A stretch of 600 bases of DNA from Escherichia coli. Lineage in GTDB: Bacteria; Pseudomonadota; Gammaproteobacteria; Enterobacterales; Enterobacteriaceae. The translations under genes were made by a program, and so were the position numbers. Positions 1-600 of the stretch are shown in pieces. The notes under the pieces were generated by a model that did not search any database, was not told the origin of the DNA, and saw only the letters and a list, made by a program, of their open reading frames with translations. Numbering within the stretch: position 1 is the first letter of the stretch; each line of letters opens with the position of its first letter. Location: the NCBI RefSeq assembly GCF_003334785.1, contig NZ_QOWV01000081.1; one strand, written 5' to 3'.

Positions 1-600
1 CCCTCATCCTCGCTGCGGATAAGTTTGCCGGTCAGGTCGTGGTGATAACGCTGTGTGCGGCCGTCAAAGCCGGTTTCCTGTATCAGCCGGTCAAGTACAT
101 CGTAACGGAAGGTGGTGTGGCTGCCGTTTTCACTGGTCAGGCGGATGACCCGTCCGGCAGCATCGTATTCCATACTGCGCGTCAGCCCGCCCTGCGTGGT
201 ACGGACGGCCTTTCCCCACGCATCGTACTGTGTCCCGTTTCTGCTGCCGTCCGGGGCAATGACGGCGGTCAGGTCACCGGCGATGTTGTATTCATACCGC
301 GTTTCATGGCCCTGCGTGTCTTTCACGGCAATTAACTGTCCACGGCTGTCGTATGCGCGGTACTGACTCAGCCCTTCCTCGCGGTGCACCGCCGTCATCT
401 GCTCGAAGCGGTCATGGTCATAACGGGTTACATAACCGGAACAGTCGGTGAAGCTCAGCAACTGACCGTAACGGCTCCACGTCATGGTTTTCCGGCTGCC
501 GGTGGCATCTTCCGTTGCGCAGGGTAAGTCACTGTGTGGATTATCATAACGGTAGCGGGTGATATCGCCGTCAGGGGCAGTTTCCTGAATCAGACGGCCC
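1..600 (-). CDS. Rhs-family YD-repeat core protein (polymorphic toxin shell), internal fragment; partial at both the 5' and 3' ends
   Basis: Seen in sequence: the reverse-complement frame with codons 599..597 down to 5..3 is open across the whole window (199 codons, no stop). Its translation carries YD dipeptides at about 21-residue spacing within motifs such as RYRYD, YRAYDSRGQLIAV, YEYNIAGDLTAV, MEYDAAGRVIRL, FRYDVLDRLIQE and RYHHDLTGKLI, matching the Rhs/YD-repeat consensus (roughly xRYxYDxxGRL). Established knowledge: this pattern defines Rhs/YD-repeat proteins (Pfam RHS_repeat PF05593, TIGR01643). From memory the residue string looks like the E. coli rhsA/B/C/D-type core, but I cannot assign a paralog or species without an alignment, so the gene symbol is left blank. 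No start or stop codon lies in the window, so the true gene extends beyond both edges. Confidence 0.93.

Follow-up and report, generated by a model that had tools for sequence, protein, structure and literature searches.

A mid-core YD-repeat segment of an Escherichia coli rhs gene of the RhsA-B-C-F subfamily, with a rare glutamate codon at position 558

Features and reading frame of the window

The window, meaning the whole 600-base stretch of DNA analysed here (58.8% G+C), carries part of one long protein-coding frame on the minus strand, within which a series of YD (RHS) repeats and one variant codon are located. The features, in window coordinates, are the following.

3..599, minus strand: fragment of an open reading frame with no start or stop within the window, codons 493-691 of a roughly 1,400-codon RhsB/RhsA-type core ORF
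543..599, minus strand: partial YD (RHS) repeat, fragment residues 1-19, clipped by the window edge (PF05593 E 0.0011, model positions 5-23, marginal)
402..404, minus strand: codon 558 (RhsB numbering; fragment residue 66), GAG, Glu, the sole difference from K-12 rhsB
372..476, minus strand: YD (RHS) repeat, residues 42-76, holding the variant codon (PF05593 E 3.6e-6)
243..353, minus strand: YD (RHS) repeat, residues 83-119 (PF05593 E 3.3e-10; the best TIGR01643 stretch covers residues 83-120)
120..227, minus strand: YD (RHS) repeat, residues 125-160 (PF05593 E 5.5e-6)
54..167, minus strand: YD (RHS) repeat, residues 145-182 (PF05593 E 1.1e-10)

The preliminary description had placed the window inside an Rhs gene on the minus strand, on the ground that this frame alone is open throughout, and had named an in-frame stop or a frameshift as evidence that would speak against it. 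Six-frame translation agrees with that description, as the minus-strand frame at offset 1 (window 3-599) contains 0 stops in 199 codons and is the sole stop-free frame, while the remaining five contain 2, 5, 11, 13, and 13 stops; neither a stop nor a frameshift was found in the minus-strand frame within the window. Of 20,000 mononucleotide shuffles of the window, only 149 (0.75%) left one of the six frames free of stops over its full length, so that base composition does not account for the open frame. The G+C content at codon positions 1, 2, and 3 of the minus-strand frame is 0.61, 0.48, and 0.67, respectively. Nei-Gojobori dN/dS was calculated as 0.19 against K-12 rhsD (dS 0.83) and 0.29 against K-12 rhsC; values of 0.19-0.29 against paralogs indicate purifying selection on the minus-strand frame and confirm that it is coding. 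Open reading frames with both a start and a stop inside the window are all short, the longest being an antisense ORF of 98 codons with a GTG start.

At the DNA level, no direct or inverted repeats of at least 14 nt were detected in the window, and the YD repeats are degenerate. A promoter scan of the window identified no promoter-like site, and an Rfam search of it at E <= 1 returned no match. A terminator-like hairpin with a T-rich tail (GGTGGTGTGGCTGCC GTTTTCACTG) lies at window 111-125 on the plus strand; this single site compares with 0.6 ± 0.9 in shuffles and is consistent with chance.

Protein family and repeat content

The translation had been described from the letters alone as textbook YD repeats, with a profile search proposed as a check, and PF05593 (E 1e-10 to 5e-6), TIGR01643, and NF041261 all match it. 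The repeats are tandem and lie above family thresholds, with PF05593 identifying four at E <= 5.5e-6 and one marginally, and TIGR01643 (YD_repeat_2x) reaching 84 bits against a cut-off of 15.8 in five stretches of the 199-residue translation. About nine consecutive strand-turn-strand YD-repeat units are encoded in the window. The NCBIfam equivalog NF041261 (RHS element core protein) matches at E 2e-116 with 390.3 bits, collinear with profile positions 501-699 of 1261; its cut-off of 2,000 bits applies to the whole protein and is out of reach for a 199-residue fragment. In the full-length relative from E. coli strain E423 (1,409 aa), the same profile scores 2,638.7 bits over 1,247 residues, above the cut-off, which amounts to 2.12 bits per residue compared with 1.96 in the fragment. 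TIGR03696 and PF03527 match at the core end of the E423 protein.

Comparison with E. coli rhs genes

Alignment to the rhs genes of E. coli K-12 places the fragment at core codons 493-691 and in the RhsA-B-C-F subfamily, the position and subfamily assignment that the preliminary description had left to such an alignment. The window matches K-12 rhsB at 599/600 (1 mismatch, 99.8%; gene nt 1476-2075, codons 493-691), rhsA at 598/600 (2 mismatches, 99.7%), and rhsC at 585/600 (15 mismatches, 97.5%). Against K-12 rhsD, identity falls to about 80% at the nucleotide and 75% at the amino-acid level, with about 136 nucleotide differences, and K-12 rhsE, a truncated pseudogene without this region, gave no match to the window. 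Near-identity to rhsA, rhsB, and rhsC but 80% identity to rhsD assigns the fragment to the RhsA-B-C-F subfamily, nearer to A and B than to C. This subfamily, as defined by Hill and colleagues, corresponds to clade I of Jackson et al. (PMC2935791).

K-12 RhsB (b3482, WP_000015298.1) and RhsA (b3593) share frame, position, and YD repeats with the window; both carry Gly558 where the window carries Glu, the sole amino-acid difference. At codon 631, the one synonymous site that separates rhsA from rhsB, the window agrees with rhsB and not with rhsA. RhsC and RhsD of E. coli, the latter from the RhsD-E subfamily, have the same core architecture as the window and align collinearly with it.

Among 5,426 complete E. 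coli genomes searched by megablast, 3,897 (about 72%) contain a match to the window, with a median of 4 and a maximum of 7 copies per matching genome, almost all chromosomal. Plasmids hold 6 of the 16,556 matching places in complete E. coli genomes. Among the matches listed, the best genome matches reach 599/600 and fall in coding sequences named RHS element core protein, rhsA, rhsB, or rhsC. In different strains, an equal match of 599/600 to the window is reached by genes bearing the names rhsA, rhsB, and rhsC, so that no single locus or paralog is assignable from the window. Clade I cores at several loci have been described as almost identical, the tips being their main difference (PMC2935791).

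The composition of the window is core-like: the core G+C bins of rhsB range from 0.57 to 0.67, compared with 0.35-0.45 in the tip and 0.35-0.38 in the downstream DNA. A G+C-rich core joined to an A+T-rich tip has been described for rhs elements (PMC2935791) and agrees with the 58.8% of the window. Family profiles and identity to K-12 both bear out the locus type that had been proposed, an Rhs core gene on the minus strand. Judged from sequence comparison, the window is an internal core segment (codons 493-691) of a clade I (RhsA-B-C-F) rhs gene from E. coli.

Gene neighbourhood and delivery

The nearest full-length relatives contain DUF6531 at residues 46-123, further RHS repeats, PF03527/TIGR03696, and a tip, and are followed by a small downstream gene. 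The small ORFs found downstream of them are yhhH, yibA, and yibG, and their other neighbours are nikR, yibF, or ybfA. Downstream of the E423 rhs gene (L006:11605-13209), yibG is followed by a fragment of an RHS core domain and an immunity gene of the Imm57 family, both frameshifted. The E423 yibG, encoding a SEL1-like repeat protein, is likely the immunity gene, and the fragments beyond it resemble a displaced 'orphan' tip/immunity module of C-terminal displacement.

Delivery by type VI secretion through PAAR/VgrG, which the preliminary description had mentioned for Rhs proteins in general, holds for many of them; in the closest full-length relatives of the window, no vgrG is adjacent and the PAAR match is remnant-like only. 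Neither vgrG nor eag adjoins rhsA, rhsB, or rhsC in K-12 or the E423 rhs gene. On the nearest full-length relative, the Pfam PAAR_motif profile gives a sub-threshold match (E 0.24) at residues 2-20, covering model positions 51-69 of 70, and the C-terminal end of the PAAR-like spike-tip chain 9rce_c weakly matches its residues 2-29 (E 0.037). The N-terminal PAAR match looks like a remnant and not a full domain.

The N-terminus 'MSGKPAARQGDMTQY' of the E423 Rhs protein (L006:7364-7500) is identical in K-12 RhsA and RhsB (L001:6526-6660). It resembles the prePAAR motif, AARxxDxxxH (PMC7773334), with Tyr replacing His. After this prePAAR-like N-terminus, no transmembrane region and no Pfam-significant PAAR domain were detected, and DUF6531 starts at residue 46. 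The N-terminal motif looks like a vestige of a PAAR/prePAAR module in an Rhs subfamily without adjacent vgrG. E. coli Rhs proteins of this kind have been described as PAAR-containing, and rhsA-C as orphans whose carrier VgrG, if any, is unclear (PMC7216683). The solved type VI Rhs effectors are proven cargo and bear a PAAR, VgrG, or clade domain, whereas the E. coli A-B-C-F relatives examined showed no complete PAAR domain and no linkage to vgrG. Type VI delivery is therefore not established for the RhsA-B-C-F subfamily.

Structural homology and predicted role

The fragment aligns almost end to end with solved Rhs proteins (E 2e-43 to 8e-23). The matches include Pseudomonas aeruginosa Tse5 (8cp6, E 2.4e-43), an Rhs-Vgr fusion (8qja, 2.3e-34), and Pseudomonas protegens RhsA (7q97, 1.6e-32), together with 8h8a/b, the Salmonella bongori Rhs cores (8qjb-d), Acinetobacter baumannii Tse15 (8uy4), and Photorhabdus Tre23 (7pq5). 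The matches to teneurins have E values from 2.5e-17 to 1e-4. In an AlphaFold2 model of the fragment (mean pLDDT 67; five aligned sequences only), strands of 5-6 residues alternate regularly with turns of 5 residues, as expected for YD repeats.

In solved Rhs proteins, antiparallel YD-repeat strands spiral into a closed cocoon around the C-terminal toxin, and an aspartyl autoprotease severs the toxin at a PxxxxDPxGL boundary (PMC8765631). The solved type VI effectors among the matches (Tse5, P. protegens RhsA, Tre23, Tse15, and S. bongori Rhs) build the cocoon wall from YD hairpins (PMC8765631) and are collinear with the window. The TcB/TcC components of Tc toxins and the teneurins are distant relatives with the same YD-repeat shell fold as Rhs; a Tc cocoon winds through four turns and is docked on TcA, and the shell of a teneurin is a scaffold with nothing inside (PMC8765631).

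By analogy with Tse5, P. protegens RhsA, Tre23, Tse15, and Tc toxin BC, the YD hairpins of the window would contribute to the wall of a hollow beta-cocoon, inside which a variable C-terminal toxin domain would be enclosed. An aspartyl autoprotease may release that domain by cutting at the conserved PxxxxDPxGL boundary, and in the producer the toxin would be neutralised by a small immunity protein whose gene lies immediately downstream. The toxicity of the K-12 rhsA tip is neutralised by the downstream yibA according to Vlazny and Hill, as cited in PMC3150448. The window itself probably encodes structural shell and would contribute neither catalysis nor specificity.

As DNA, the window belongs to the long, almost identical repeat shared by rhs loci, on which recA-dependent unequal crossing-over acts. 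A crossover of this kind between rhsA and rhsB gave rise to the name 'rearrangement hot spot' (PMC2935791, PMC3150448), and the rhsA-rhsB identity across the window (598-599/600) is typical of the homology that supports such an event.

Rare allele at codon 558

The single difference from K-12 rhsB lies at window position 403, which is T on the plus strand and A on the coding strand; this base was absent from the preliminary description. Codon 558 is GGG in K-12 rhsA and rhsB, GGT in rhsC, and GGC in rhsD, all encoding Gly. The residue is the glycine of the YDxxG repeat motif, 'YDHDRF[G>E]QMTAV' (YDHDRFGQMTAV), and it is conserved in RhsA-D and also Gly at the aligned position of the solved Tse5 8cp6 and of 8qja. 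In the AlphaFold2 model (mean pLDDT 67), residues 63-67 form the turn between strands 57-62 and 68-74. At the equivalent position of other repeats in the same protein, D, N, or H is found (YDVLDRL, YDEADRL, YNHHNQL, YDSQHRL), from which it follows that Glu558 is probably tolerated.

With a 71-base query centred on the site, the Glu558 allele was found in 1 of 3,476 matching complete E. coli genomes, that of strain E423 only (NZ_CM173464.1; cloacal swab, China). There it resides in an intact gene of 1,409 codons at the yibF-rhs-yibG (rhsA) locus, whose product, the Rhs core protein WP_488362526.1, shares Glu558 with the window at 599/600 identity. The two differ at codon 576 (window 348-350; base 350), which encodes His in E423 and Asp in the window and K-12; the E423 record is thus not the source of the window. 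Asp576His (L006:9090-9092) is a second private non-synonymous change in E423, 18 codons from Glu558, with no synonymous change in the 600 bases. That both lineage-specific changes of E423 are non-synonymous (2/2) might point to weakened constraint or to errors of assembly, but two changes are too few to decide.

None of the complete E. coli genomes is identical to the window, the best reaching 599/600. An 81-mer spanning both informative sites was absent from one-genome-per-species contigs and metagenome contigs, and a 31-mer around the variant (CATGACCGCTTCGAGCAGATGACGGCGGTGC) was absent from metagenome contigs; each search had no common-allele control and constitutes weak evidence. Exact-protein look-ups returned no record for the E423 protein with His576 reverted to Asp, for K-12 RhsB with G558E, or for K-12 RhsA with G558E.

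Alternative explanations

One alternative reading of the variant attributes Gly558Glu to faulty sequencing or assembly, or to a mutation that arose recently in the laboratory, and takes the window to be plain rhsB (or rhsA) from a K-12-like strain. Such a reading fits the presence of just one transition relative to K-12 rhsB (599/600), the allele is missing from 3,475 of 3,476 matching complete genomes and from genome-representative and metagenome contigs, and the glycine affected is conserved across paralogs and solved homologues. However, the variant base recurs at this site in the independent E423 assembly, in a gene of the rhsA locus, and an identical error arising twice is unlikely; the D, N, or H residues at the equivalent position in other repeats (YDVLDRL, YDEADRL, YNHHNQL) also indicate that an acidic residue is not structurally forbidden. 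An error or laboratory origin is accordingly considered unlikely, and the recurrence of the base in an independent assembly makes a real rare polymorphism likelier than an error. Gly558Glu is most likely a rare polymorphism in a predicted hairpin turn, tolerated or mildly destabilising. That it is non-neutral, affecting cocoon stability, toxin retention or release, or orphan-Rhs decay, or that it tags an unsampled lineage with an undescribed toxin tip, is given little credence.

It is more doubtful still that the window comes from an rhs core that is decaying or has been cut short (a pseudogene or an orphan fragment) and not from an intact expressed toxin gene. Rhs remnants do occur in E. coli, as illustrated by the K-12 rhsE pseudogene, which lacks this region, and by the RHS fragment pseudogene downstream of the E423 gene, and the changes relative to rhsB are all non-synonymous (G558E in the window; G558E and D576H in E423), as under relaxed constraint, with n=2. 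Yet all 199 codons are open, the remnants at the loci examined are 3'-end pieces and none is mid-core, every match listed falls under a full-length annotated CDS, and the one genome with the same allele, E423, carries it in an intact 1,409-aa gene above the NCBIfam equivalog cut-off. The notion of a real gene on the plus strand, whether the 98-codon GTG ORF at 39-335 or the 84-codon ORF at 112-366, is close to negligible. On the plus strand, frame 2 is interrupted by no more than two stops in 199 codons, and there are GTG-initiated ORFs of 84-98 codons, but long antisense ORFs are expected inside G+C-rich genes. Neither K-12 nor E423 has an annotated plus-strand gene over the equivalent region, the window lacks a promoter-like site and an Rfam match, and the minus frame has family matches at 1e-116 with dN/dS well below 1. 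The plus-strand ORFs were rejected as genes on these grounds: no annotation in K-12 or E423, no promoter-like site, and a coding minus frame.

Taken as a whole, the window is best explained as a core segment of a clade I rhs gene on the minus strand, encoding what is by homology a structural shell, with a probability of about 0.96; no observation speaks against this assignment.

Significance

The window is already known in every respect that it can show and is an ordinary clade I mid-core fragment. The variable tip and the immunity gene lie about 1.7 kb further in the reading direction, beyond window coordinate 1; the specific biology of the gene requires that tip and immunity sequence, and the question of delivery for the subfamily lies beyond the reach of the window. 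The Gly558Glu allele is a minor curiosity and at most a lineage marker. A 600-base read from the rhs core region does not map to a unique locus. Beyond annotation the window matters little: it is the conserved part, coding for the shell, of a repeated gene family that ranks among those known longest in E. coli.
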